The translations under genes were made by a program, and so were the position numbers. Shown in pieces: positions 4,540 through 63,082 of a stretch of 64,000 nt of DNA. The DNA comes from Candidatus Limimorpha sp. (GTDB lineage: Bacteria; Bacteroidota; Bacteroidia; Bacteroidales; F082), in assembly GCA_045111995.1 (NCBI GenBank), contig JBGUHI010000034.1, positions 66,308 through 130,307 on the forward strand, in the 5' to 3' direction. The stretch's first letter is position 1. Every line of letters begins with the position of its first letter. The notes beneath the pieces were generated by a model that saw nothing but the letters and a program-made list of their open reading frames with translations, had not been told where the DNA came from and searched no databases.

Positions 4540-4542
4540 GGC

Positions 4543-4694
4543 TATCAGCTGTCAGCTATCAGCCATCAGCCATCAGCAGTCAGCTGTCAGCTGTCAGCTA
4601 TCAGCTGAGTTGTTGCAAGCTGAAAGCTGATTGCTAAAAGCTAAAAGCTAATTGCTGAAAGCTGATTGCTGAAAGCTAAAAGCTAAAAGCTAAA
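4543..4694. repeat. Two-armed inverted heptanucleotide array (9 x NNTCAGC, 12-nt spacer, 11 x WGCTRAW)
   Basis: 4543-4605 is 9 exact 7-nt units ending in TCAGC. 4618-4694 is 11 units of agctgaa/agctaaa/tgctgaa, i.e. the complement family. The innermost units pair tcagct/agctga. Confidence 0.95.
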
Positions 4695-5856: not shown

Positions 5857-8800
5857 ATGAGTCTACAACGAACATCAGTCAATAATCCGGTGACGACTGC
5901 CTTGATTTTCGTCGCCATCGCCATTTTCGGCATTTTCTCCCTGATGAAGCTCTCCATCAACCAGTTACCCAACATGGAGACCAACTTCATCATGGTGATG
6001 ACGTCCTATCCGGGAGCCAGTGCCGCCGATATTGAAACCAACATCTCCAAGACTTTGGAGAACACCCTGAATGCCGTCCCCGACCTGAAGCACCTTTCCT
6101 CCACTTCGCGTGAAAACACTTCGGTGCTTTCTTTGGAGTTTGAAAGCGGCATCGACATTGAAACTGCCACCAACAACGTGCGCGACAAAATCGACATCGT
6201 CAGGAACTACCTGCCCGACGGCGCGACCAACCCCGTGCTGTTCAAGTTCAACGCCGAGGACATGCCCATCATGCTCCTCAGCGTGACGGCAGAAGAAAGT
6301 TTGCCCGCTTTGGACAAGATCATCGAGGACCGCGTCACCACGCCTTTGGCGCGTGTGAGCGGCGTGGGCACGGTGTCGGCCAACGGTGCCCCGAAGCGCG
6401 AAATTCAAGTTTATGTGGATCCTAACAAACTGGAAGCCTACAACTTAACCCTTGAAAGCATCTCCAATACCTTGGCTACCGAAAACCGCAATGTGCCCGC
6501 CGGTTACATCGACATCGGCTCGAACAGTTACAGTTTGCGTATCCAAAAAGAGTTCACCTCGGCCAAGGAAATGGAAAACGTTATCGTCGGGTCACGCGGC
6601 ACCGCACCTATTTATTTGCGCGACGTGGCCACGGTTAGGGACGGTTCGGAGGAACGTATTCAGGAGTCGTACAGCAACGGTCGCCAAGGGGCCACCATCA
6701 TCATCCAAAAGCAGACCGACGCCAACGCCGTGAACGTCATCAAGGGCATCAAGAAACAGTTGAAAACCATCGAGCCGACACTGCCTTCCGACGTGAAACT
6801 GAACATCATCGTCGATGGCTCCACGTCCATCCAAAACACCATCAACAGCCTGCGCGACACCATCTTCATCACTTTCCTGTTGGTGATGTTGGTCGTGTTC
6901 GTGTTCCTCGGTCGTTGGCGCGCCACTTTCATCATCGTTTTGGCCATCCCGATTTCGCTGTTGGCTTCGTTGATTTACCTGTTTGCCACGGGCAACACGC
7001 TGAATATCATATCTATGTCGTCACTGACCATCGCCATCGGCATGGTCGTGGACGACGCCATTGTGGTGTTGGAAAACATCACCACGCACATCGAGCGAGG
7101 CTCGAAGCCCAAGGAGGCCGCCGTTCACGCCACCCAAGAGGTGCAGCTTTCGGTTATCGCATCCACTTTAACCATGTTGGCGGTGTTCCTGCCTTTGACC
7201 ATGATTAAAGGAACTACTGGCGTGATGTTCAAACAGTTGGGTTGGATTGTGTCCATCATTATGATTGTCTCCACCATTGGTGCACTGACATTGGTGCCGA
7301 TGATGTGCTCCAAAATGCTCGTGAAAAACCCACACGAAAGCAAGTTCCACAAGGCCATCTTCCGCCCCATCAACAAGGCTTTGGACACCATCAGCAACGG
7401 TTACGCCCGACTCATCAATTGGACCGTAAACCACCGTAAAGTGGTCATTTTCGGAATGTTAGCGCTTTTCATTTCGTCCGTTGCCTTCCTTGCCCCAACC
7501 TTGAAAACAGAAATGTTTCCGAAAATGGACGAAGGCCGCTTGAGCATCAACATCGAACTGCCGACGGGCACGGGACAAAACGTGACGGGTGCCCTTGCCA
7601 AGAGCCTTGCCGAGGACTTCATGGCCATCCCCGAAGTGAAGATTTGTAACTACAGTTTCGGCCAAGCCGACTCCGACAACGCCTTCGCCTCGATGCGAAA
7701 CAACGGAACGCACATCATGTCGTTCAACCTGCGCCTCGGCACCAAGACCGAGCGTCGAAAGGCGGGCTTGCGCAAGACCAGCGAAGTGGCCGACGAGATC
7801 CGCGCCAAACTCAACGCCATGCCTGAAATCAAGAAAGCCAACGTCAATGAAGGCGGTGGCGGCATGGGCGGCATGAGTACCGTTCAAGTGGAAGTTTACG
7901 GCTACGATTTTACCACCACCGACCGTGTGGCCAACGACATCGCACAAAAGCTTCGCGACCGTGGCATACTGCAAGTCATTGTGGGTCGCGACGAATACAC
8001 GCCTGAGTATCAGGTGGATTTCAACCGTGAAAAACTGGCCTTGAACGGTTTGAACAGCACCACGGCGGCCACTTACGTCAAGAACCGCATCAACGGCTCG
8101 GTGGGTTCATATTACCGCGAGGACGGCGAGGAGTACGACATCCGTGTGCGCTACGCTCCCGAGTTCCGCCAAAGCGTGGAAGACATCGAAAACATCAAGA
8201 TTTACAACAGTTACGGCCAACCCGTCCGGGTCGGCGACCTCGGCGAAGTGGTCGAATCGCTGACGCCACCTCAAATCCAGCGCAAAGACCGTGAACGCAT
8301 GGTCAGCGTCACCGCCGTCGTCGGCAAGGGCATGGTGCTGAGCGATGTGGTCAAGATTTGCGAGGAAGTCATCGCCGACACCGAAATCCCGTCCGAAATC
8401 ATGACCAAAATCGCCGGCGACTACGAGACCCAAAAAGAGATGTTCGGCGACCTGATCACTTTGCTCGTCCTCATCATCATCTTGGTTTACATTGTGATGT
8501 CCTCGCAGTTCGAGAATCTGATGAAGCCTTTCGTCATTATGTTTTCCGTGCCGTTCACCTTCACCGGTGTGTTGCTCGGCCTGTGGGCCACTAACACCGC
8601 CTTGGGCGCGATGGCTTTTGTCGGCATCCTGATCCTGATGGGTATCGTCGTGAAAAACGGTATCGTACTCATCGACTACACCACCCTGCTCGAAGAGCGC
8701 GGTGTGGAAGTCAAGGAAGCCACCGTGAAAGCCGCCCGCTCGCGTCTGCGCCCCATTTTGATGACTACACTGACGACAGTCTTGGGTATGATTCCCATGG

Positions 8801-8991
8801 CCATCGGTCGCGGCGAAGGCGCTGAGATGTGGAACTCCTTGGGCATCACCGTGGCCTGGGGCTTGACGGTTTCGACCTTGATTACCTTGTTGCTCATTCC
8901 GGCATTGTATTGTTCGTTGGAGACCAGAGCGGTGCGCAGAAAGAGAAGAAAAGCAGAGGAAGCTTTGACGAAGACTGAAAATATTAGATAG
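5857..8991 (+). CDS. Efflux RND transporter permease (AcrB/HAE1-like)
   Basis: 1044 aa with a 12-TM architecture and two large periplasmic loops. Typical AcrB-family blocks are present (VVDDAIVVLENI, GIVVKNGIVLIDY). Confidence 0.95.
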   Translation: MSLQRTSVNNPVTTALIFVAIAIFGIFSLMKLSINQLPNMETNFIMVMTSYPGASAADIETNISKTLENTLNAVPDLKHLSSTSRENTSVLSLEFESGIDIETATNNVRDKIDIVRNYLPDGATNPVLFKFNAEDMPIMLLSVTAEESLPALDKIIEDRVTTPLARVSGVGTVSANGAPKREIQVYVDPNKLEAYNLTLESISNTLATENRNVPAGYIDIGSNSYSLRIQKEFTSAKEMENVIVGSRGTAPIYLRDVATVRDGSEERIQESYSNGRQGATIIIQKQTDANAVNVIKGIKKQLKTIEPTLPSDVKLNIIVDGSTSIQNTINSLRDTIFITFLLVMLVVFVFLGRWRATFIIVLAIPISLLASLIYLFATGNTLNIISMSSLTIAIGMVVDDAIVVLENITTHIERGSKPKEAAVHATQEVQLSVIASTLTMLAVFLPLTMIKGTTGVMFKQLGWIVSIIMIVSTIGALTLVPMMCSKMLVKNPHESKFHKAIFRPINKALDTISNGYARLINWTVNHRKVVIFGMLALFISSVAFLAPTLKTEMFPKMDEGRLSINIELPTGTGQNVTGALAKSLAEDFMAIPEVKICNYSFGQADSDNAFASMRNNGTHIMSFNLRLGTKTERRKAGLRKTSEVADEIRAKLNAMPEIKKANVNEGGGGMGGMSTVQVEVYGYDFTTTDRVANDIAQKLRDRGILQVIVGRDEYTPEYQVDFNREKLALNGLNSTTAATYVKNRINGSVGSYYREDGEEYDIRVRYAPEFRQSVEDIENIKIYNSYGQPVRVGDLGEVVESLTPPQIQRKDRERMVSVTAVVGKGMVLSDVVKICEEVIADTEIPSEIMTKIAGDYETQKEMFGDLITLLVLIIILVYIVMSSQFENLMKPFVIMFSVPFTFTGVLLGLWATNTALGAMAFVGILILMGIVVKNGIVLIDYTTLLEERGVEVKEATVKAARSRLRPILMTTLTTVLGMIPMAIGRGEGAEMWNSLGITVAWGLTVSTLITLLLIPALYCSLETRAVRRKRRKAEEALTKTENIR

Positions 8992-8997
8992 TTATTT

Positions 8998-9041
8998 GGC
9001 TGTTAGCCGTTAGCTATTAGCTATTAGCACGGCTGACAGCC
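8998..9041. repeat. Heptamer array (AGCYRTT units) with a local hairpin, 6 nt after the RND pump stop
   Basis: The sequence reads ggctgtt agccgtt agctatt agctatt agcacgg. ggctgttagcc (8998-9008) pairs with ggctgacagcc (9031-9041) with one G-U position. Confidence 0.9.
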
Positions 9042-9064
9042 AAATTATATGCATAGAAGTTTAT

Positions 9065-9415
9065 ATGAGAGATTTTCACAATTATAAGGTTTGGAATAAA
9101 GGGCATCAATTTGCCTTGAACATTTACAAAAAGACCAAATCTTTTCCGAAAGAAGAGTTGTTTGGGATTACCTCTCAACTTAGGCGAGCGGCAACTTCCA
9201 TTCCATTTAATATTGCCGAAGGATGTGGACGAAGAAGCGATGCTGAATTTGCTCATTTCCTGAACATTGCGGCTGGGTCTGCTTCTGAAGTCGAAGAAGA
9301 ACTTCTTTTGTCATACGACTTAGAGTATATGGATAAAGCCTCATATATTCAACTTAATGATGAGGTGAACGACATAAAAGCAATGCTAAACAAACTTATA
9401 GAAACCTTACATTAA
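9065..9415 (+). CDS. Four-helix-bundle protein (23S rRNA intervening-sequence protein / Avd-like family)
   Basis: The sequence FHNYKVWNKGHQFALNIYKKTKSFPKEELFGITSQLRRAATSIPFNIAEGCGRRSDAEFAHFLNIAAGSASEVEEEL matches the hallmark motifs of this family (SQ(L/I)RRAA.S...NIAEG, G S..E). Confidence 0.85.
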   Translation: MRDFHNYKVWNKGHQFALNIYKKTKSFPKEELFGITSQLRRAATSIPFNIAEGCGRRSDAEFAHFLNIAAGSASEVEEELLLSYDLEYMDKASYIQLNDEVNDIKAMLNKLIETLH

Positions 9416-9444
9416 AGCAATCAACCTAACACTACGTAAAATCA

Positions 9445-9479
9445 AGCTAATTGCTAACTGCTAATAGCTAACAGCTTAA
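9445..9479. repeat. Heptamer array (WGCTAAY units), inverted relative to 8998-9030
   Basis: The sequence reads agctaat tgctaac tgctaat agctaac agcttaa. gctaatagctaac (9460-9472) is the exact reverse complement of gttagctattagc (9009-9021). Confidence 0.9.
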
Positions 9480-29163: not shown

Positions 29164-29171
29164 TAACTTTG
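29164..29171 (+). promoter_or_regulatory. Bacteroidota -7 box for the DUF47/PiT operon
   Basis: 'taactttg', 70 nt upstream of the ATG. A small hairpin gccgaa-N7-ttcggc (29188-29206) lies in the leader. Confidence 0.45.
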
Positions 29172-29241: not shown

Positions 29242-29892
29242 ATGGCACTGAACAACCTATTCACCAAGGGAAGCAACCGCGAGAAGCACTTCTTCCCCAC
29301 CTACCTGCAACAGGCCGAGGCGGCACAGGTGGCCGCCAAATACCTCAAGGAACTTGTCAAGAGTGACGACCCTGAAGAACGTCGGCTGCTCACCCGCATG
29401 ATCAAGAAACAAGAGACCACTGGCGACGAACTGCTGCGCGAGTTCTACGTCGAACTCAACGAGGCCTTCGTCACGCCCTTCGACCACGAGGACATGAACG
29501 CCCTCGCCATGGGGCTCGACACCTTCCTCGACTTCATCAACCACTCGGCCAAGACCATCCTGATGTACACGCCCAAGAAAATCGACAAGCAAATCAAGGA
29601 AATCGTCGACAACATCCACGAGGACGCCAACACCATGATCCAGATCTTCAACCTGCTCGAAGACCTCGGCAAGAACCACAAGGAAATCGGCGAGTTGTGC
29701 GACAAGGTGACCCAAATCGAACATACCGTCGACGAAATCTATGGCGACTACATCTCCTACCTTTTCGAGAACGAGAAAGACGAGATCGAGTTGCTGAAAT
29801 ACAAGGAGATAGCCCAAGCCGTTGAAGACACCACCGACCGTGCGAAAGACGTCACGGGCATCGTGAAACTGCTGATCATAAAAGAATCGTGA
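29242..29892 (+). CDS. DUF47-family (PhoU-like) phosphate-transport accessory protein
   Basis: About 215 aa, all-helical. Blocks: ETTGDELLREF, FVTPFDHEDMNALAMGLD, TDRAKDV. It overlaps the PiT start by 4 nt. Confidence 0.8.
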   Translation: MALNNLFTKGSNREKHFFPTYLQQAEAAQVAAKYLKELVKSDDPEERRLLTRMIKKQETTGDELLREFYVELNEAFVTPFDHEDMNALAMGLDTFLDFINHSAKTILMYTPKKIDKQIKEIVDNIHEDANTMIQIFNLLEDLGKNHKEIGELCDKVTQIEHTVDEIYGDYISYLFENEKDEIELLKYKEIAQAVEDTTDRAKDVTGIVKLLIIKES

Positions 29893-30959
29893 TGAACCTC
29901 TTGACCATAGCCATCATCCTGTCCATCGTCCTTGCCTTCGTCTTCACTTTCCTGAACGGCATGAACGACGCGGCCAACTCCATCTCGACCATCATCGCCA
30001 CCAAGGTGATGACACCCGTGCAGGCCATCCTGTGGGCCTCGTTTTGGGAGTTCGCCGCCTTCCTCATCATCCGCCTCGTGCTCAACCAGCAGTTCGCCGT
30101 GGGTAACACCATGGCCAACTTCGCCGAGCAAAGCGTCATCGACCCCTACCTCATCCTCTCCGCCCTTGTCGGAGCGGCAATATGGGTGGCGATATGCACC
30201 AAGAGCGGGATGCCCATCTCCACTTCGCACGCCCTCATCGGCGGCATCATCGGAGCGGCATGGTTCGTCAACGGCAGCGCTGTGCTGCAAATGAAACCCA
30301 TCCTCATCACCTTGGCATTCATCGTCTTATCCCCCCTCATCGGACTGTTCCTGGGTTTCTTCTTGGAATGCGTTTTCTTGAAAATCTGCAAAAACAAGCC
30401 TCGGAAGCGTGTCGACAAACTCTTTAGGATACTACAGCATTTCTCGACGGCGGCTTTCTGCATCGGCCACGGCTCCAACGACGCGCCTAAGACCATGGGC
30501 ATCATTGCCGTGCTGATGGCCAGCGTGTTCACTACAGATGGCGTAAGCGAAGGCATGAAAGCGTTCATCGGCAACTTCTACGACAGCAGCCGGGGGTTCC
30601 ACATCCCTGACATTCTGGCCGTTTCGTGTTATATCATCATGTCATTGGGCATTTTGATTGGGGGCAAGAACGTCATTAAGACCATGGGCGGCGGTTTGGC
30701 CAAGATCACACCTGTCAGAGGTTTCTCGGCAGAGTTCGCAGGTGCCACTACCTTGATTGCCACCTCGTTCCTTGGCATTCCCGTCAGCACGACACACACC
30801 ATCACAGGCGGCGTCATCGGCGTAGGCCTCACAGATGGCATGAAATCCGTGAAATGGGTCACGGCCAAGCGCATCGTCCTGTCGTGGATACTCACCATCC
30901 CAGTGCCGCTCGTCATCGGCGGACTCCTGAACCTGTTGTTTCACCTCTTAGTAAAGTAA
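29889..30959 (+). CDS. Inorganic phosphate transporter, PiT family
   Basis: NGMNDAANSI and GSNDAPKTMG (the duplicated PiT signature), with a multi-TM profile. Confidence 0.9.
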   Translation: MMNLLTIAIILSIVLAFVFTFLNGMNDAANSISTIIATKVMTPVQAILWASFWEFAAFLIIRLVLNQQFAVGNTMANFAEQSVIDPYLILSALVGAAIWVAICTKSGMPISTSHALIGGIIGAAWFVNGSAVLQMKPILITLAFIVLSPLIGLFLGFFLECVFLKICKNKPRKRVDKLFRILQHFSTAAFCIGHGSNDAPKTMGIIAVLMASVFTTDGVSEGMKAFIGNFYDSSRGFHIPDILAVSCYIIMSLGILIGGKNVIKTMGGGLAKITPVRGFSAEFAGATTLIATSFLGIPVSTTHTITGGVIGVGLTDGMKSVKWVTAKRIVLSWILTIPVPLVIGGLLNLLFHLLVK

Positions 30960-30963
30960 TGCC

Positions 30964-31617
30964 ATGAGCCTCAACAGTTTCTTCCAGTATTTCGTCCCCA
31001 AGGAAAAAAAATTCTATCCGCTTTACGAGAAGCAGGCGGAATACATCGACAAGGCCGCCAAACTGCTGCGGCAGATGCTCCTTGAGACCGACCTCGAACG
31101 GCTACAGAAGCTGAAAGCGGACATCAAGGCCTGCGAGACGGGTGGCGACGCCGTCTTGGACGAGTTCCACAGCACGCTTTTCTGCACCGTCCTTACGCCT
31201 TTCCAACGCGAGGACGTCCACGAACTGGCAGAGTTGATGGACGACTTAATGGATCGCATCGACGACTGCGGCAACATTGTCCTCACCCGCCGTTTCCTGG
31301 ACGTAGACGAAGACCTCACCACCATGGCGGAAAACATCATGTTTGCCACCGAGAGCCTGAGCAACATCATCAGCCGCATCCCCTATCTTTCGGACGACAA
31401 TAAACGAAAGGAAATCAACCGCCTCTGCCAAGAAATCAAGACCCTTGAGCACGACAACGACGAACGCTACGGCAGTTACATCCACAAACTCTTCAACCAA
31501 AACTACAGCCTCACCGAAATCATCAAACGCAAAGACCTCGTGCAAGTGCTTGAAAACACGACCAATTCGGTCAAGTATATATCGGATAAAGTTAGAAGTA
31601 TAATAAGTAAACTGTAA
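30964..31617 (+). CDS. Second DUF47-family (PhoU-like) protein
   Basis: Paralogous to 29242-29892 (ETGGDAVLDEF, VLTPFQREDVHELAELMD). Confidence 0.8.
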   Translation: MSLNSFFQYFVPKEKKFYPLYEKQAEYIDKAAKLLRQMLLETDLERLQKLKADIKACETGGDAVLDEFHSTLFCTVLTPFQREDVHELAELMDDLMDRIDDCGNIVLTRRFLDVDEDLTTMAENIMFATESLSNIISRIPYLSDDNKRKEINRLCQEIKTLEHDNDERYGSYIHKLFNQNYSLTEIIKRKDLVQVLENTTNSVKYISDKVRSIISKL

Positions 31618-31626
31618 ATCAATAGC

Positions 31627-31845
31627 TATCAGCTGTCAGCTGTCAGCAATCAGCTGTCAGCCATCAGCAATCAGCTGTCAGCCATCAGCAATCAGCTGTC
31701 AGCAATCAGCAATCAGCTGTCAGCAATCAGCAATCAGCAATCAGCAATCAGCTGTCAGCAATCAGCAATCAGCTGTCAGCTGTCAGCAATCAGCAGTCAG
31801 TAGTCAGCTGTCAGCCTCGGTTCAAACAAGCTGAGAGCTGAAAGC
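31627..31845. repeat. 27 tandem NNTCAGC heptamers (31627-31815) plus a short inverted arm agctgag agctgaa agc (31829-31845)
   Basis: Counted unit by unit. The units are tatcagc, tgtcagc, aatcagc, catcagc, agtcagc and one agtcagt. The phase never slips over 189 nt. Confidence 0.97.
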
Positions 31846-31861
31846 CCAAAAACAAAACACC

Positions 31862-33055
31862 ATGCGACAAATCATCACTAGCCTGTTAGACAACGACCTC
31901 TACACCTTCAGCGTGTGCTACGCCTACCTCCAGAAGTTCCCCCGCGCCATGGGACAATACACTTTCGTCGACCGCAACAACACGGTCTATCCCGAGGGTT
32001 TCGCGGAGAAGCTTCGCGAGCAGTTCGACAGCTATGCCAACATCCGCATCACCGACGAAGAAGTGCATTTCATGAAGCGGAAATGCTACTACTTCCCGCT
32101 GTGGTTTTTCACCTTCCTGCGCGGTTTCCATCTGCGGCCCAACGAGGTCGAGGTGAGCCAAGACGAGGAAGGTCATCTGCACATCCAAGTGACGGGCCTT
32201 CTGTGGCGCACTGTGTTTTGGGAAATGCCTATCCTGGCCACCGTCTCAGAGTTGATGCACGAACTGAAAGGCGAGTTTGAGCACTACGATGCCGAGAACG
32301 AATACCAAAAGTCCTACGCCAAGGGCATCCGTCTTATCAGCAACAGCGTAAAATTCAGCGACTTCGGAACACGTCGTCGTTTCTCCTTCGCACACCAGGA
32401 CTTGGTGATTCGTTCGTTCATCGAGGCACAGGAACAATTCTCCAAGACCTATTTCGTGGGTACCAGCAACGTGCTGCTGGCCATGAAATACGACCTCACC
32501 CCCATCGGCACCATGAGTCACCAGTTCATCGAGACCTGCTCGCTCTACGGTTACAACGAGGCCAACTACATCGCCATGGACTACTGGCAGGAGGTCTACG
32601 CCGGCAGCCTGGGTGTGTTCCTCTACGACACCTACACTCGCAAGGCCTTCTTCCAGAACTTCACCCAACTCCACGCAAAGTTGTTTGACGGCCTGCGCGT
32701 CGACAGCGGCGACAACTATGAGGCTTTGGAGGACATCATCGAGAAATACAAGGAACTCGGCATCGACCCAGCGCAGAAGTCCATCATCTTCAGCAACGGC
32801 CTGAACGTCGACGAGGCCATAGCCATCCACGAGGCCGTGGCAGGCCGAATGCAGGATTCGTTCGGCATTGGCACCCACCTCACCTGTGATATCGACAACG
32901 TGAAGGCCATGAACATCGTGGTGAAGCTCACGGCGGCCAAGATCACCGAGAAGCGCAACTGGAAGAAAGTGGTCAAGCTCAGCGACGACCTCGGCAAATA
33001 CACCGGCGACCCAGAAGAGATCGAGATTTGCAAGAAGACGTTGGAGATAGAGTAA
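31862..33055 (+). CDS. pncB: Nicotinate phosphoribosyltransferase
   Basis: SLLDNDLYTFSV at the N-terminus, FGTRRR, GTSN, and a size of about 397 aa. Confidence 0.9.
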   Translation: MRQIITSLLDNDLYTFSVCYAYLQKFPRAMGQYTFVDRNNTVYPEGFAEKLREQFDSYANIRITDEEVHFMKRKCYYFPLWFFTFLRGFHLRPNEVEVSQDEEGHLHIQVTGLLWRTVFWEMPILATVSELMHELKGEFEHYDAENEYQKSYAKGIRLISNSVKFSDFGTRRRFSFAHQDLVIRSFIEAQEQFSKTYFVGTSNVLLAMKYDLTPIGTMSHQFIETCSLYGYNEANYIAMDYWQEVYAGSLGVFLYDTYTRKAFFQNFTQLHAKLFDGLRVDSGDNYEALEDIIEKYKELGIDPAQKSIIFSNGLNVDEAIAIHEAVAGRMQDSFGIGTHLTCDIDNVKAMNIVVKLTAAKITEKRNWKKVVKLSDDLGKYTGDPEEIEICKKTLEIE

Positions 33056-38556: not shown

Positions 38557-38612
38557 GGATTTCAGATTTCAAGATTTAAAATTCAAGATTTTAGAGTTTC
38601 GGATTTCAAATC
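38557..38612. repeat. Degenerate heptamer array (RGATTTC-like, ~8 units) spanning the CPA2 stop / topB start junction
   Basis: The sequence reads ggatttc agatttc aagattt aaaattc aagattt tagagtt tcggatt tcaaatc. It overlaps the last ~10 codons of the 38583 gene. Confidence 0.7.
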
Positions 38613-52500: not shown

Positions 52501-53809
52501 TTGTTAACACTCCACTCAAACCAGTTCCAGCAAAGGCATAGTCTCCAATGGTAACCACAGAACTTGGAATGTTGAAATTCCCTGTTATTCCCGACAAATC
52601 CCTAAACGCTCCATTGGGAATAACCTGTACACCTTCGCCAATCTGAAGCGAAGTGATATTGCTGCAGCCAGAAAACGCAGACGTAAAATAACAATATGGA
52701 TCATCAGTATAGTATTGACCATTGCCATAATAGTAATCAAAGCTATTAGTATCATTTCGATAATACCCAATTGCGGTACAATTAGTGGCATTAAAAACAA
52801 TGCCTGTCAATCCCAAACAGTTGGCGAATGCGTTTTGGCCAATCGAAGTGATGTTGGTTCCTATGGTTAGACTCCCAGTAAGGCTGCAATCTTGAAAAGC
52901 GCCTTCGCCGATTGAAGTGAGCGAATTTGGTAGGGGCAGAGTACCCGTAAAACCAGTATTGGCAAAAGCATATTCGCCAATCGTGGTAACGGAATTGGGA
53001 ATATTCAACGCTCCTGTCAAGCCGGAGCAACCATTAAAAGCATATCCGCCAATTGTAGTAACAGAACTGGGTATTACCAATGTTCCGCTCAAGCTGGAAT
53101 GGCCGTCGAATGCCTTATAAGGAATGGTTTGCACATTGTTTCCGATGTTCAATGTGGTCAATGGACAGTTCGCGAAGACCCCGACATCCCATCCATAATA
53201 ATAATAAAAAATTCCCATCGTACAGTTGGTAGCATTGAAGTTCAAGGTTGTGAAACCATTATTGGCAAACGCATAACATCCAATAGAAGCAACCGATTCG
53301 GGAATGGTCAATGTACCGCTAAAACCAGCACCCCAAAACATATAGTTAGGGATAACCTGGACTCCTTCTCCAATATTCAGATTGGTCAAGCTAGAACAAT
53401 CAGTAAATATAGAGTTTTGAGAACTAAGAGTACAGTTTATTGCGTTGTAGTTTACCGTGGTAAAGTTAGCCCCTTGAAAAGGCAAATAACCTGTAGATGA
53501 AATGGTACTGGGAATGGTCACTGATAGATTTAGGCCATTAGGATTATAATCATAAAACGCACTCTCACCGATACAATTCACGGTATAAGAAGTGCCATTA
53601 TCAGACACGCTTTCAGGAATGTCAACATCCAAATCATATTCCACATAACCGACTACGGTTACCGAAACTCCGTCGTCGTTAACGGAGTAGTTCAAGTTGC
53701 CCACCGTAAAGTTCTGGGCGTGTGCATTCTTCATTCCCGCCACACTCAGCAGCAGGACGAACAAGGCGGCACTCGTCGCCTTCCCGAATCGTAAAATTCT
53801 TTCTTTCAT
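49541..53809 (-). CDS. BspA-like leucine-rich-repeat surface protein, T9SS-sorted (1422 aa)
   Basis: About 30 LRR_5-type units (IPxSVTSIGxxAFxxCxxLT). Two copies of the HW...DECRGS module follow. The C-terminus has a T9SS tail (YPNPVNANGLVRINMP...KGVYVMKVAIDGKGIYTCKLIVE). Confidence 0.9.
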   Translation of the reverse strand: MKERILRFGKATSAALFVLLLSVAGMKNAHAQNFTVGNLNYSVNDDGVSVTVVGYVEYDLDVDIPESVSDNGTSYTVNCIGESAFYDYNPNGLNLSVTIPSTISSTGYLPFQGANFTTVNYNAINCTLSSQNSIFTDCSSLTNLNIGEGVQVIPNYMFWGAGFSGTLTIPESVASIGCYAFANNGFTTLNFNATNCTMGIFYYYYGWDVGVFANCPLTTLNIGNNVQTIPYKAFDGHSSLSGTLVIPSSVTTIGGYAFNGCSGLTGALNIPNSVTTIGEYAFANTGFTGTLPLPNSLTSIGEGAFQDCSLTGSLTIGTNITSIGQNAFANCLGLTGIVFNATNCTAIGYYRNDTNSFDYYYGNGQYYTDDPYCYFTSAFSGCSNITSLQIGEGVQVIPNGAFRDLSGITGNFNIPSSVVTIGDYAFAGTGLSGVLTIPENVTSVGLKAFANTGVTAINFNATDCSTIGYLYWLNSGYNELEFISAFYGCSNIESLQIGENVQQIPTGAFKDLQGISGALNLPNSVETIGDYSFDNIGATGTLVIPESVTSIGSYAFSNNGFTTLNFNATNCTAMGTGWLWSNGTDIPVSTFYNCNNLTTLNLGSEVQTIPDYAFVSCNTLEGSLTLPNSLQSIGMRSFYGCSGFTGELVIPNLVDTIDSQAFRNCTGFSGTLTIGTNVSAVSGNAFMNTGFTTMNYNATNCTIGGSVWNDYYGYQFAPNSFTGMPSLTTLNIGNNVESISDIAFKDCSTLTGNLILPNSLTSIGDQAFYNCSGLEGIVMGNSVETIGNEAFRNCGGIRGELTLPATLLSVGNHAFASCDEITTVNYNATSCTQMGDAQHPVFFDCASLAHINIGDNVLSIPNYAFKRCSTVEDMTVAVAVPPTIGASTFATVSRSIPVIVPFGSGDDYRNAAYWQEFFNITEGYGPTPNSNHWQPNPHQSAFNMTVIGIIQIGGVEQTVGTLEIGAFCNDECRGSQILTYYPPIDRYLLFFTLYGEHNDQLTFRLYDHATSQESLLVCTEVMTFVPDNIVGSYQDPHVFNFVSIQNSILSQGWNWHSSYVELGTGSLDMMTNSLGESGLMIKSQSNGFTTYDAGEWFGTLTTVNNESTYLINTSADCVMSVAGSFVTPDQHPITLSNGWNWIGYPSTNALDLNTALGGLAAQDGDMIKNQDNFSVYIAGMGWVGSFNTIYPGTGLMYNSSATGNTSFVYANGGRCLDEIPSMTDNHWMANRQAYPYNMSVMAVVCLDENELGGDAELAAFDGDECRGSARLLYVEHLDRYVAFLTVTGEEAATLTLKLYDHETGMEYENPNSSLNFEVDGIVGSLANPFIVDFSTTTETDEPFANGLAAYPNPVNANGLVRINMPYESEARVEIVNALGAMVSAENVTGSSSAIKAPATKGVYVMKVAIDGKGIYTCKLIVE

Positions 53810-61609: not shown

Positions 61610-61680
61610 GGCATCCGCCTATTTCCCCGACGTTTCGCGTCGTTTGGGCATCCGCCATTTTTCCCGACGTTTCACGTCGG
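61610..61680. repeat. Tandem ~34-nt repeat x2 (period 37), each with a hairpin
   Basis: Copy 1 is ggcatccgcctatttccccgacgtttcgcgtcg (61610-61642). Copy 2 is ggcatccgccatttttcccgacgtttcacgtcgg (61647-61680). The stems are cgacg/cgtcg and ccgacg/cgtcgg. Confidence 0.9.
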
Positions 61681-61714
61681 GCTGAATTAAATCGCCCTTT
61701 CAGGGCTTCCCTCC

Positions 61715-61770
61715 CACCTCCTAACTTCACACCTCATACCTCATACCTCAAACTTCACACCTCATACCTC
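61715..61770. repeat. 8 tandem heptamers (A[CTA]AC[CT]TC family) immediately 3' of the rarA stop
   Basis: The sequence reads cacctcc taacttc acacctc atacctc atacctc aaacttc acacctc atacctc, in exact 7-nt phase. Confidence 0.9.
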
Positions 61771-61774
61771 CCAA

Positions 61775-63082
61775 CTAATACCCATACTTCTCCTTCCACT
61801 TGTCGCGCAGGTTCTTGCGCAGTTCGCGTTCACGAGGGTTATCTTGTGGCTCATACAAAACCGTGCCAGAAATTTCGGCTGGCAGAAATTCCTGTTCCAC
61901 AAAATTGCCTGAATAGGCGTGGGCATATTTGTAGCCATCGCTATAGCCAAGGTCTTTCATCAGTTTGGTCGGGGCGTTACGCAGGTGCAAGGGCACCGAC
62001 AAATCGCCGGTTTCGCGCACGAGGGCTTGTGCCGCGTCGATGGCGGCCACGGCGGCGTTGCTCTTGGGCGACGAGGCCAAATAAGTGACCGTCTGCGCCA
62101 AGATGATGCGGCTCTCCGGCCATCCGATTTTGTTCACCGCATCGAAGCAGGCGTTGGCGAGCAACAAGGCGTTGGGATTGGCATTGCCGATGTCCTCGGA
62201 TGATAGAATCAGCATACGGCGGGCGATGAAAAGCGGGTCCTCCCCTGCCTCAATCATGCGGGCGAGATAGTACAAGGCCGCGTTGGGGTCGCTGCCACGC
62301 ATCGACTTGATGAAGGCCGAAATGATGTCGTAGTGCATCTCGCCCTGCTTGTCATATTTCACGAGGTTACTCTGGATGCAGTCGGTGGTGAAATCGTTGG
62401 TGATGACGAGTTCCTCGGCGGTTTCGTCCAAGTCGTTCAAAGAGGTAACAACCAATTCGGTGGCATTCAACAACTTGCGCCCGTCTCCGCCGCTGATTTG
62501 CATCAAAGCCTCAGGCTCCTTGACGGTGATTTTCTTGCCGAAATCGTATTCCAAAGCCTTCACGGCCTTGGCCAGAAGAATCTCCAAATCCTCTTTTTCC
62601 AGCGACTTGAGCACATACACTTGACAACGCGACAGCAAAGGCGAAATGACCTCGAAACTTGGATTCTCCGTCGTCGCGCCAATCAGCGTGACCAAACCGC
62701 GCTCCACGGCACCCAGCAACGAGTCCTGCTGCGACTTGCTGAAACGGTGGATTTCGTCTATAAATAATATAGGTGCTTCGGGTGCCATGCGCGCACGGTC
62801 GATGACTTCACGCACTTCCTTCACACCGCTACTGACGGCGCTCAGTTGGAAAAACTGCCGTTTCACCTGCTTGGAGATGATGAAAGCCAAGGTGGTCTTA
62901 CCCACGCCAGGCGGTCCCCAGAAAATCATGGACGGCACGCGCCCGCTTTCGATGGCACGGCGCAGCACGGCGTTTTCGCCGATGATGTGCTTCTGCCCGA
63001 TGTAATCGTCAAGCGAAGTCGGGCGCAGGCGTTCCGCTAATGGGATGGTTGATTGCATTACCATAATGTTTTCGGGAAACAA
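61775..63082 (-). CDS. rarA: Replication-associated recombination protein A (RarA/MgsA AAA+ ATPase)
   Basis: PLAERLRP, a GQ.H-type block (IGQKHIIG), the Walker A motif GPPGVGKTTLA, FIDEIHRF, GATTENPSFE, and the C-terminal MgsA_C region. An alternative start, MQSTIPL, lies at 63058. Confidence 0.9.
   Translation of the reverse strand: MFPENIMVMQSTIPLAERLRPTSLDDYIGQKHIIGENAVLRRAIESGRVPSMIFWGPPGVGKTTLAFIISKQVKRQFFQLSAVSSGVKEVREVIDRARMAPEAPILFIDEIHRFSKSQQDSLLGAVERGLVTLIGATTENPSFEVISPLLSRCQVYVLKSLEKEDLEILLAKAVKALEYDFGKKITVKEPEALMQISGGDGRKLLNATELVVTSLNDLDETAEELVITNDFTTDCIQSNLVKYDKQGEMHYDIISAFIKSMRGSDPNAALYYLARMIEAGEDPLFIARRMLILSSEDIGNANPNALLLANACFDAVNKIGWPESRIILAQTVTYLASSPKSNAAVAAIDAAQALVRETGDLSVPLHLRNAPTKLMKDLGYSDGYKYAHAYSGNFVEQEFLPAEISGTVLYEPQDNPRERELRKNLRDKWKEKYGY

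Follow-up and report, generated by a model that had tools for sequence, protein, structure and literature searches.

A 27-unit heptanucleotide array upstream of pncB in Candidatus Limimorpha as the probable overgrown arm of an intercistronic hairpin element

A tandem array of 27 heptanucleotide units lies between a DUF47 gene and pncB in Candidatus Limimorpha sp., within the 64-kb stretch of DNA analysed here (the window). With a probability of roughly 0.6, it forms the upstream arm, greatly expanded, of a hairpin element between cistrons that is made of 7-nt units and carries no cargo gene at this site. In elements of this family, each unit would combine a 5-nt pairing core (TNAGC, here TCAGC) with two more variable bases, and the downstream arm would be the reverse complement (GCTGANN). 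The elements appear to start within a few bases of the preceding stop codon and to end ~15-25 nt ahead of the next start codon. Their usual form would be a solo hairpin with about five units per arm, and such arms also seem to be the usual setting of PF05635 genes, which would lie in the loop, across many phyla. The array shares with this family its inverted arms with complementary cores and its place in a co-directional spacer, a few nucleotides past a stop codon. The PF05635 ORF that can lie between the arms is missing here, the 13-nt loop holding no ORF.

Reading of the sequence and its division into 7-mers bear out the original prediction of 27 consecutive, in-phase NNTCAGC units at 31627-31815, a figure that comes from this assembly alone. 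The units comprise 12 AATCAGC, 10 TGTCAGC, two CATCAGC and one each of TATCAGC, AGTCAGC and AGTCAGT, and an exact TCAGC is present in 24/27. A degenerate 28th unit, CAATAGC, precedes them at 31620-31626, and the expanded left arm as a whole, delimited by 7-mer cutting, Tandem Repeats Finder and shuffles, covers 31620-31815 on the + strand. The array starts 9 nt past the DUF47 stop codon (TAA, 31615-31617), and the element composed of array and right arm ends 16 nt before the pncB start. Tandem Repeats Finder reports 27.1 copies of period 7 (score 203); a 21-nt higher-order period fits better (89% matches, score 259), which points to multi-unit duplications. Three TCAGC spaced 7 nt apart occur 30 times in the window, compared with 0 occurrences in dinucleotide-preserving shuffles.

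The array is non-coding, as had been proposed. No ORF of at least 40 aa in the ORF list crosses it on either strand, which rules out a coding repeat. With a length far above the expectation from composition and a non-coding location, it has the defining properties of long simple repeats of the LSSR/STRR type. A CRISPR array, with repeats of ~23-47 nt and unique spacers of similar length, is likewise ruled out by the 7-nt period and the lack of spacers, in agreement with the original prediction. Rfam covariance models gave no match at gathering score at any heptamer element in the window.

A 13-nt spacer and a short inverted arm follow the array, both as first described. The spacer CTCGGTTCAAACA (31816-31828, +) forms the loop between the arms and aligns with the loops of homologous hairpins in relatives. 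The right arm AGCTGAGAGCTGAAAGC (31829-31845, +) consists of two GCTGANN units plus GC, shares the 7-nt phase of the array and is homologous to the GCTAA/GCTGA right arms of relatives (L128-L132, L123 and L122). RNA folding predicts a terminal stem-loop at 31807-31845 (+), in which the right arm pairs with the final one and a half units of the array (15 base pairs, -20 kcal/mol). Its z-score is -3.65, 0/200 shuffles fold as well, and the same hairpin recurs in the centroid structure of a 271-nt fold. An A-rich leader, CCAAAAACAAAACACC (31846-31861, +), lies directly 5' of the pncB start codon and is conserved in relatives. It had also been claimed that about 25 units are left unpaired. This holds in that only about two units have a partner in the right arm. 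However, it is not strictly true, because each TGTCAGC unit makes a CAGCTG palindrome and the array is partly self-complementary; as single-stranded DNA, it folds in many registers.

The gene upstream of the array is a DUF47/PhoU_div gene taken from the ORF list (30964-31617, +; Pfam PF01865, E 7.8e-24), the last of a DUF47-PiT-DUF47 group. Downstream lies pncB (31862-33055, +), which encodes nicotinate phosphoribosyltransferase and is identified by Pfam PF17767 and PF04095 and by its homologues. This gene order is kept in relatives. The nearest upstream TAnnTTTG box, TAACTTTG (29164-29171, +), is a motif match from a pattern search that lies ~70 nt upstream of the first DUF47 gene, and on sequence grounds it is a candidate promoter of the whole group, including pncB. 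The absence of such a box between the array and pncB was confirmed, with none on the + strand between 29164 and 45221. Since the spacer has no recognisable Bacteroidetes -7 box, pncB is probably part of an operon that is transcribed through the array. A mosaic or recombination boundary at the element was ruled out, as DUF47b is less conserved than pncB in all relatives.

The same spacer takes several forms in relatives. In L126 and L127, it is 3 nt long and holds no element. L128-L130 carry a TTAGC hairpin of 2-3 units, L122-L124 a degenerate hairpin and L125 an 8-nt array. In the closest relatives, L131 and L132 (pncB 93-94% identical), a PF05635 gene with heptamer arms is followed by a complete hairpin before pncB. 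When seven loci are aligned over the hairpin, leader and start codon, 1-5 right-arm units are seen, and the spacer hairpins of the relatives are homologous, their unit numbers differing by steps of 7 nt. The proposed length change in 7-nt steps is thus seen between species only, in homologous hairpins of 1-5 units per arm.

Further copies of the unit family had been predicted elsewhere in the window. They are present, but the sites are inverted pairs and not simple arrays. For example, a solo hairpin at 4541-4694 (+) has nine NNTCAGC units (4541-4606), a short loop and 11 GCTRANN units (4617-4694). It begins 2 nt past a stop codon, ends ~22 nt before the next start codon and folds with -72.6 kcal/mol on the + strand and -82.2 kcal/mol on the - strand. 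A second pair, at 8996-9028 and 9445-9478, which had been taken for a 'T-for-C variant' of the array, represents two arms around a PF05635 gene. The left arm of this cassette (8996-9028, +) holds five NNTTAGC units and lies 5 nt past the stop of an RND pump gene (5857-8991), and the right arm (9445-9478, +) holds five GCTAANN units and ends ~13 nt before the next start codon. The cargo gene (9065-9415, +) is the only PF05635 copy in the window. It encodes a four-helix-bundle protein of 116 aa, which matches Pfam PF05635 (23S_rRNA_IVP, E 1.3e-39), NCBIfam TIGR02436 (E 5.9e-40) and PDB 2gsc and 2rld. In orthologous cassettes at the same gene junction (L133-L136), the arms have changed together. 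The window also contains a match to Acido-Lenti-1 at 61663; this RNA was rejected as a general partner of heptamer arrays because Rfam models give no match either at the window's heptamer elements or in 18 acidobacterial loci with such elements.

Heptamer arms accompany PF05635 genes outside the window too. In a set of 80 PF05635 loci from metagenomes, which are the best matches to one query and therefore sample a subfamily only, period-7 arrays occur in 60/78 upstream flanks (77%) and 40/78 downstream flanks, compared with 22/885 control segments (2.5%). Inverted arms were found at 57/75 loci. The two arms co-vary within a locus: arm cores from the same locus match at 5.08 of 7 positions and those from different loci at 4.00 (permutation p < 1e-4). 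Because the loci share similar cores, a mismatched-partner control for the inverted arms was uninformative, and distant-segment controls and permutation of the unit consensus were used instead. The commonest arm length is five units and arrays of at least 10 units are rare; with 27 units on the left and 2 on the right, the pncB element is an outlier relative to the usual ~4-6 per arm. In addition, 40/79 PF05635 ORFs end in GCTGA or GCTAA, which places the stop codon within the first arm unit.

Pairing between arms is concentrated in the core, with Watson-Crick matching of 75-86% at core positions versus 53-66% at the two variable positions. The excess of G.U pairs expected of a stem selected in sense RNA is absent from the sense-strand arm mismatches (88 G.U versus 129 A.C), which lends no support to an RNA-level stem; DNA may instead be the molecule in which pairing is maintained. 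Classification of arms as direct or inverted is confounded by near-palindromic cores such as TAGCT, and examples with direct as well as inverted arm copies (L131, L132, L101 and L136-L138) were kept by eye only.

The heptamer-arm architecture has a wide taxonomic spread, with elements in at least 120 genome stretches from many phyla and in at least 120 viral stretches. Most left-arm/right-arm pairs are simple hairpins, with loops below 100 nt in 84/102, and a cargo survey of these pairs revealed no recurrent cargo besides PF05635. The elements lie between co-directional ORFs in 16 of 24 cases, and their median distance past the stop codon is 5.5 nt. Among the matches listed, a PF05635 gene is found near TCAGC arrays at 4/120 genome loci and 0/120 viral loci. 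Most TCAGC arrays thus have no PF05635 gene nearby, indicating that the protein is not required for the hairpins to exist. Long arrays are also found elsewhere, including one of 23 units in an acidobacterial locus (L096), made of the same TGTCAGC, AATCAGC and CATCAGC units, and one of 19 units in L003. Octamer variants occur in L125, L164 and L186, and viral contigs such as L254 carry heptamer hairpins at successive gene boundaries.

A small homologous hairpin would be ancestral at the DUF47-pncB spacer, where the nearest relatives would have gained, or kept, a PF05635 gene. The window's lineage has neither cargo nor more than two right-arm units, and its left arm would have been amplified to 27 units. 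Slipped-strand mispairing or unequal recombination may account for this expansion, which is supported by the 21-nt higher-order pattern and by the CAGCTG self-complementarity of the TG units. The locus probably tolerates the 25 additional units and does not need them.

A comparable architecture is known from 23S rRNA intervening sequences (IVS) with an S23p/PF05635 ORF, found in Leptospira, Coxiella and Xanthomonas relatives (PMC4990558). Here, terminal inverted repeats form a stem with the PF05635 ORF in its loop, RNase III cuts this stem in rRNA, and the distribution of IVS is sporadic, with gain and loss (PMC4990558). The cassette at 8996-9478 and the pncB-spacer cassettes of L131 and L132 have exactly this layout. 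However, heptamer elements lie between protein-coding genes in mRNA and not in rRNA helices, and their stems are built from tandem 7-nt units. The array at pncB differs further in having no ORF and a lopsided stem (27 versus 2 units). A true 23S rRNA intervening sequence is ruled out by the protein-coding flanks, and Rfam finds no rRNA in the window.

By analogy with IVS, heptamer elements in RNA may form similar stems, which could be places between cistrons where RNase III processes the transcript or where it is stabilised. In the window's copy, only the 15-bp terminal hairpin upstream of the pncB leader would remain as a stem. Phage T7 early mRNA contains intercistronic RNase III hairpins, which are unique sequences without 7-nt periodicity. 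Heptamer elements such as those of the viral L254 resemble them as stems between the genes of a polycistronic transcript. They differ in their 7-nt periodicity, and RNase III processing would be carried over to them by analogy.

To our knowledge, it has been recognised for decades that no long simple repeats are as over-represented in bacteria as heptanucleotides, and the excess has gone unexplained. Cyanobacterial STRR heptanucleotide repeats were reportedly described by Mazel et al. in 1990. Other heptanucleotide repeats (TAACTGA, and GGGAATC in Xanthomonas and Nostoc) are mostly intergenic, often just downstream of the 5' ORF, and their length varies between close relatives in 7-nt steps; their function is unknown (PMC4679880, PMC4692102). 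The heptamer elements share with repeats of the LSSR/STRR type their tandem 7-nt units, mostly intergenic location and length change in 7-nt steps. However, LSSR/STRR repeats are described as direct repeats of one unit, whereas here a 5-nt core is kept and two positions are variable, an inverted arm is paired with the array and the family is linked to PF05635. The original prediction knew of no described function for such arrays in Bacteroidota, and none was found in the literature searched here either. Searches on the unit sequences and on the link between PF05635 and heptamers also returned no match. Heptanucleotide arrays and IVS stems are each known, but their union as one widespread family was not found described in the searched literature. 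The array locus links heptanucleotide repeats to PF05635 genes.

PF05635 '23S rRNA IVS proteins' are very common small proteins, for which we know of no function. One alternative gives them, or IHF/HU-type proteins, a direct part: each 7-nt unit would be a putative site for one subunit of a multimeric protein, such as the pentameric PF05635 protein, and 27 units would form a high-capacity site or a sponge. This is unlikely, although several observations are in its favour. The commonest arm has five units, and the homologue XCC0516 (2gsc) is a homopentamer (PMC4990558). PF05635 genes are usually set in heptamer arms, with the stop codon in the first unit, and the variable positions hold a fixed phase relative to the core. 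Supporting this, paired heptanucleotides in Geobacter metallireducens have been annotated as global regulator binding sites, of which class 3 consists of five tandem heptanucleotides (MTYCTGA) and class 1 of four octanucleotides (PMC2700814). They occur as opposite-strand pairs at variable distance between operon genes, for instance proB-proA, and were read as IHF/HU sites (PMC2700814).

The Geobacter sites resemble heptamer elements in their opposite-strand array pairs, five units and intra-operon location, and their octamers recall those of L125, L164 and L186. They were, however, described in one genome and have another unit sequence, and no link to hairpins, PF05635 or other phyla was drawn there. 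Against protein binding, cores differ widely between loci and arm complementarity is kept, a pattern that pairing explains better than a fixed recognition sequence does. Most arrays lie far from any PF05635 gene, and the window's only PF05635 gene sits in TTAGC arms, whereas the array consists of TCAGC units.

A broader proposal, which we regard as doubtful, is that heptamer hairpins and PF05635 proteins form one system comparable to REP/RAYT, with the pentamer recognising five-unit arms. Each PF05635 subunit would take one 7-nt unit, as RNA or single-stranded DNA, and the arms would help the protein either to propagate itself or to control the cistrons nearby. The solo hairpins of bacterial and phage genomes would then be trans targets or relics, and the runaway 27-mer a high-capacity binding site or a by-product. 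REP/BIME elements are short palindromes in co-directional spacers, often in inverted pairs, with many solo copies and few that flank a specific gene. Heptamer elements are similar in filling co-directional spacers and in having many solo copies and few flanking a specific gene. REPs are, however, single palindromes of 20-40 nt rather than tandem heptamers, and RAYT is an HUH transposase, while no catalytic activity is known for PF05635. If true, this proposal would assign a function to a small protein family that ranks among the most widespread of those still uncharacterised, and it would offer a mechanism by which heptanucleotide repeats came to be in excess in bacteria, as has long been noted.

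It is also improbable that the array is a contingency repeat, in which slippage in the pncB 5' untranslated region tunes pncB expression. The model for such a rheostat is the (ATCTTTC)n repeat of Haemophilus influenzae hmw1A/hmw2A, which is transcribed in the 5'-UTR and forms the left arm of a long hairpin (PMC12721329). RNase III processing of this hairpin raises hmw1A expression, and the unit number, which changes by slippage, sets the expression level (PMC12721329). The array likewise forms the left arm of a hairpin beside a leader, occupies the interval from a stop to the following start codon, has no promoter box downstream of it, and differs in unit number among relatives. However, the hmw1A repeat occupies one locus only, in front of an adhesin gene, and has a non-repetitive G-rich right arm, rather than being part of a dispersed family; phase variation is demonstrated there, and unit-number change is seen here between species only. 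Furthermore, pncB is a housekeeping gene of NAD salvage rather than one for surface structures or virulence, the same elements occur between unrelated genes in many phyla, mostly with ~5 units, and a relative with the 3-nt spacer has no element at all.

A transcription stop or insulator between the phosphate-transporter genes and pncB, whether an intrinsic terminator or a site for Rho loading, is very unlikely. The array does follow the stop codon directly, would yield ~190 nt of RNA that is not translated and shows the dinucleotide UC once per 7 nt, and has a hairpin at its end. Nevertheless, an intrinsic terminator was rejected, because the tail after this hairpin is the A-rich leader and not a T run, and a terminator scan found no + strand site at the array locus. 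The C excess, counted from the unit list, is only weak (C 29% versus G 21%), and the self-folding predicted for the RNA would disfavour the loading of Rho. Since pncB itself lacks a promoter box, full termination would also silence it.

In an independent short-read assembly of the same strain, contigs break inside the array from both sides, which indicates that assemblers struggle with it. These contigs carry 6.5 units (left) and 9 units (right), identical to the window, so that the array has at least ~15 distinct-context units. An assembly artefact, with a short hairpin of few units as the true locus, is accordingly the least credible explanation, given also the comparable long arrays of L096 and L003 and the non-trivial order of unit variants, whose 21-nt pattern is not that of a collapsed perfect repeat. 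Heptamer arrays break short-read assemblies, and they could provide strain markers in uncultured gut and rumen Bacteroidales. In exact-protein look-ups for strain-level comparison, DUF47b and PiT gave no record; pncB and DUF47a led to one sample, the contigs of which end inside the array.

The spacer between the second DUF47 gene and pncB (31618-31861) holds 27 NNTCAGC units at 31627-31815, as the original prediction had described, and cutting the sequence into 7-mers from 31620 confirms their unbroken phase; Tandem Repeats Finder gives period 7, 27.1 copies and score 203. The same cutting places a degenerate unit, CAATAGC (31620), before them; the 27 comprise 12 AATCAGC, 10 TGTCAGC and 2 CATCAGC, with one each of TATCAGC, AGTCAGC and AGTCAGT. 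A 21-nt period fits the array better (89% matches, score 259), which argues that it grew partly through multi-unit duplications. Across the window, three TCAGC motifs spaced 7 nt apart occur 30 times, compared with none in 100 shuffles. Following a 13-nt spacer, a short inverted right arm, AGCTGAGAGCTGAAAGC (31829-31845), continues in the same 7-nt phase. Together with the last array units, it is predicted to form a 15-bp stem-loop (31807-31845; -20 kcal/mol, z-score -3.65); the A-rich pncB leader and its start codon come directly after it.

The array is bordered by DUF47-PiT-DUF47 on one side and pncB on the other. It does not lie within a translated ORF, as no ORF of at least 40 aa crosses it, and a motif search upheld the claim that the spacer has no TAnnTTTG box on the + strand; the closest lies at 29164, ahead of the first DUF47 gene. 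Judged by the absence of this promoter motif, pncB may be transcribed by read-through. At 29242-31617, the phosphate transporter (PF01384) has a DUF47/PhoU_div paralogue on either side, the second of which shares 62-78% identity among relatives, versus 83-94% for PiT or pncB. In an independent assembly of short reads from this strain (sample SRR25030118), contigs end inside the array from both sides, with edges identical to the window. The array is present outside this assembly, and its 27-unit length is this assembly's count.

Recurrence beyond this locus was borne out by hairpins at 4541-4694 and 8996-9478 and by at least 120 genome stretches elsewhere. The first is a solo hairpin of 9 NNTCAGC units, a short loop and 11 GCTRANN units, with predicted folding energies of -72.6 (+ strand) and -82.2 kcal/mol (- strand). 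At the second, sites originally read as a T-for-C variant are the arms (8996-9028 and 9445-9478) of a cassette enclosing a 116-aa ORF (9065-9415). Its product is a four-helix-bundle protein of the '23S rRNA intervening-sequence protein' family (PF05635/TIGR02436), with solved structures for homologues (2gsc, 2rld). All three window elements begin 2-9 nt past a stop codon and finish some 13-22 nt ahead of the next start, they lie within apparent operons, and none matched an Rfam family. In L133-L136, orthologues of this cassette at the RND-pump junction have retained the gene, with both arms altered together; the arms of L134 are TAAGC/GCTTA. Immediately within the left arm lies a small GGCT-N-AGCC stem, CGGCTNNNAGCC, which the window (9030-9041) shares with L131-L133. 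Most contigs bearing close homologues of the window PF05635 protein are only 0.5-2 kb, which fits assembly breaks at flanking heptamer arrays, though short contigs are common in the collection anyway.

The history of the spacer can be followed in relatives, where the order arginase-DUF47-PiT-DUF47-pncB is kept and the content of the DUF47-pncB spacer differs. Whole elements and their PF05635 cargo have been gained or lost here. Where pncB is 91% identical to the window, the spacer is either 3 nt long without an element (L126/L127) or holds a hairpin with 2-3 TTAGC/GCTAA units in each arm (L128-L130). At 86% identity, there is a degenerate hairpin that terminates in GCTGAAAGCC or GATGAAAGCC (L122-L124) or, in L125 (3853-4000), an array of about 12 copies of an 8-nt unit, GAWACCYC; the same spacer has therefore gained a different short-period repeat. 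A G+C-rich segment precedes the L125 array. The closest loci found (L131/L132, pncB 93-94% identical) carry a heptamer left arm and a PF05635 gene, followed by an entire TTAGC hairpin immediately upstream of pncB.

Alignment from the final left-arm units through the start codon of pncB shows that the hairpin, its loop and right arm, and the leader are homologous in 7/7 loci. Unit number shifts by 7-nt steps between relatives (right arms of 1, 1, 2, 2, 2, 4 and 5 units), and the core switches on both arms jointly, TTAGC with GCTAA and TCAGC with GCTGA. Because of this homology, the window array is read as an ancestral hairpin's left arm that has grown from a few units to 27. In L131 (1212-1500), a block of about 95 nt, made up of the left heptamer arm, a small GGCT-N-AGCC stem, a leader and the first PF05635 codons, stands in three tandem copies upstream of an intact PF05635 gene, suggesting unequal recombination between arm arrays.

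The association with PF05635 extends well beyond this spacer. Among 80 metagenome loci picked solely by similarity to the protein, period-7 arrays lie near the gene in 60/78 upstream and 40/78 downstream flanks, compared with 22/885 control segments from the same loci, and 57/75 loci have inverted arms. Cores vary across loci (TCAGC, TTAGC, TAAGC, TGAGC, TCGGC, TCAGA, TTAGG and more, a few versions being 8 nt long), but at any one locus the upstream and downstream units are reverse complements. Accordingly, arms match at 5.08 of 7 positions within a locus versus 4.00 across loci (permutation p < 1e-4), with pairing of 75-86% at the five core positions and 53-66% at the two variable ones. This is a hairpin family with co-varying arms. 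The commonest arm length is five units (30/74 upstream arms), and arms of at least ten are rare. Half of the PF05635 ORFs terminate in GCTGA or GCTAA, so the stop codon is the first right-arm unit. The converse fails: among the matches listed, a PF05635 gene lies near a TCAGC array in only 4/120 genome and 0/120 viral loci. In one metagenome-assembled genome (L101:1560-2150), direct copies of a block of about 60 nt, holding a right and a left arm, flank the PF05635 gene, whose last codons and stop fall inside the block; the layout suggests that recombination within heptamer arrays caused an insertion or a duplication. A more distant homologue in a Verrucomicrobiota MAG (L005:4150-4700) has inverted arms of a 6-nt unit (AATCNN and its complement).

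A scan for four TCAGC at 7-nt spacing, with one genome per species, yielded the genome stretches, and viral contigs gave at least 120 more. Among the genome matches listed, most are from Acidobacteriota, with others from Chloroflexota, Verrucomicrobiota, Planctomycetota, Cyanobacteria, Bacteroidota, Patescibacteria, Proteobacteria and further phyla. Solo hairpins are the main form, as 84/102 arm pairs have loops under 100 nt. Of the 24 hairpins with callable neighbours, 16 have co-directional ORFs on both sides, with a median start 5.5 nt past the stop codon. Some arrays, such as those in Pantoea and Liberibacter, are simple homogeneous repeats, while others mix unit variants as the window array does; an acidobacterial MAG (L096), for instance, has 23 units of the same TGTCAGC/AATCAGC/CATCAGC types. 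In IMG/VR viral contigs (L254:280-3150, L245 and L246), TCAGC/GCTGA hairpins crowd successive gene boundaries, and one arm pair in L254 encloses an ORF of 54 aa bearing a C-x-x-C motif. Across 1.04 Mb of heptamer-hairpin viral loci, PF05635 genes were looked for and none was found.

The original prediction of an element family and slippage substrate stands, but it overlooked that the elements are hairpins, that they are linked to PF05635/IVS and that this array is an outlier; the interest lies in the family that the array exposes more than in the array itself. Growth would have occurred by slippage or unequal recombination, which the 21-nt pattern and the self-complementarity of CAGCTG fit. 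This palindrome arises at each TGTCAGC unit, allowing a single strand to fold in many registers, and the predicted single-strand ensemble (-40.8 kcal/mol) has no dominant structure. By analogy, the family most likely functions as an RNA stem between cistrons: RNase III cuts the stem that surrounds the same ORF in rRNA intervening sequences (PMC4990558), and it also processes a 5'-UTR hairpin whose left arm is the hmw1A heptamer repeat (PMC12721329). Sense-strand arm mismatches show no G.U excess, so the RNA-stem step gains no support from this indirect test and the arms could instead be maintained at the DNA level. At the window array, only the 15-bp stem beside the pncB leader would remain of the RNA stem, and we think that the remaining 25 units are merely put up with and serve no need.

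Unexplained but already recognised as a class, heptanucleotide repeats include TAACTGA, known from a few Bacteroidetes, and GGGAATC, known from Xanthomonas and Nostoc; their over-representation was noted by Mrazek and colleagues, according to the summaries in PMC4679880 and PMC4692102. The nearest earlier description of this architecture is in Geobacter metallireducens, where paired tandems of five heptanucleotides lie on opposite strands between operon genes, with IHF/HU binding guessed (PMC2700814). IVS elements carrying S23p ORFs are known from rRNA. An incomplete literature search found neither TCAGC-type units nor a link between PF05635 and heptamer arms. The array is a variant of kinds already known, not categorically new.

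Several unrelated short-period intergenic arrays occur in this genome. An Rfam Acido-Lenti-1 match (61663-61707; 42.2 bits, gathering score 37) has an incomplete second copy of its first hairpin upstream (about 61610-61642) and a different heptamer array, CCTCATA/CCTCACA, directly after it (61710-61782); no Acido-Lenti-1 match was found beside TCAGC arrays in 18 acidobacterial loci. About seven copies of a 7-8-nt GATTTCA-like unit (38558-38608) occupy a spacer immediately preceding a start codon on the minus strand, and Tandem Repeats Finder reports 1.9 copies of a 72-nt unit at 52964-53098 (77% matches, score 172).
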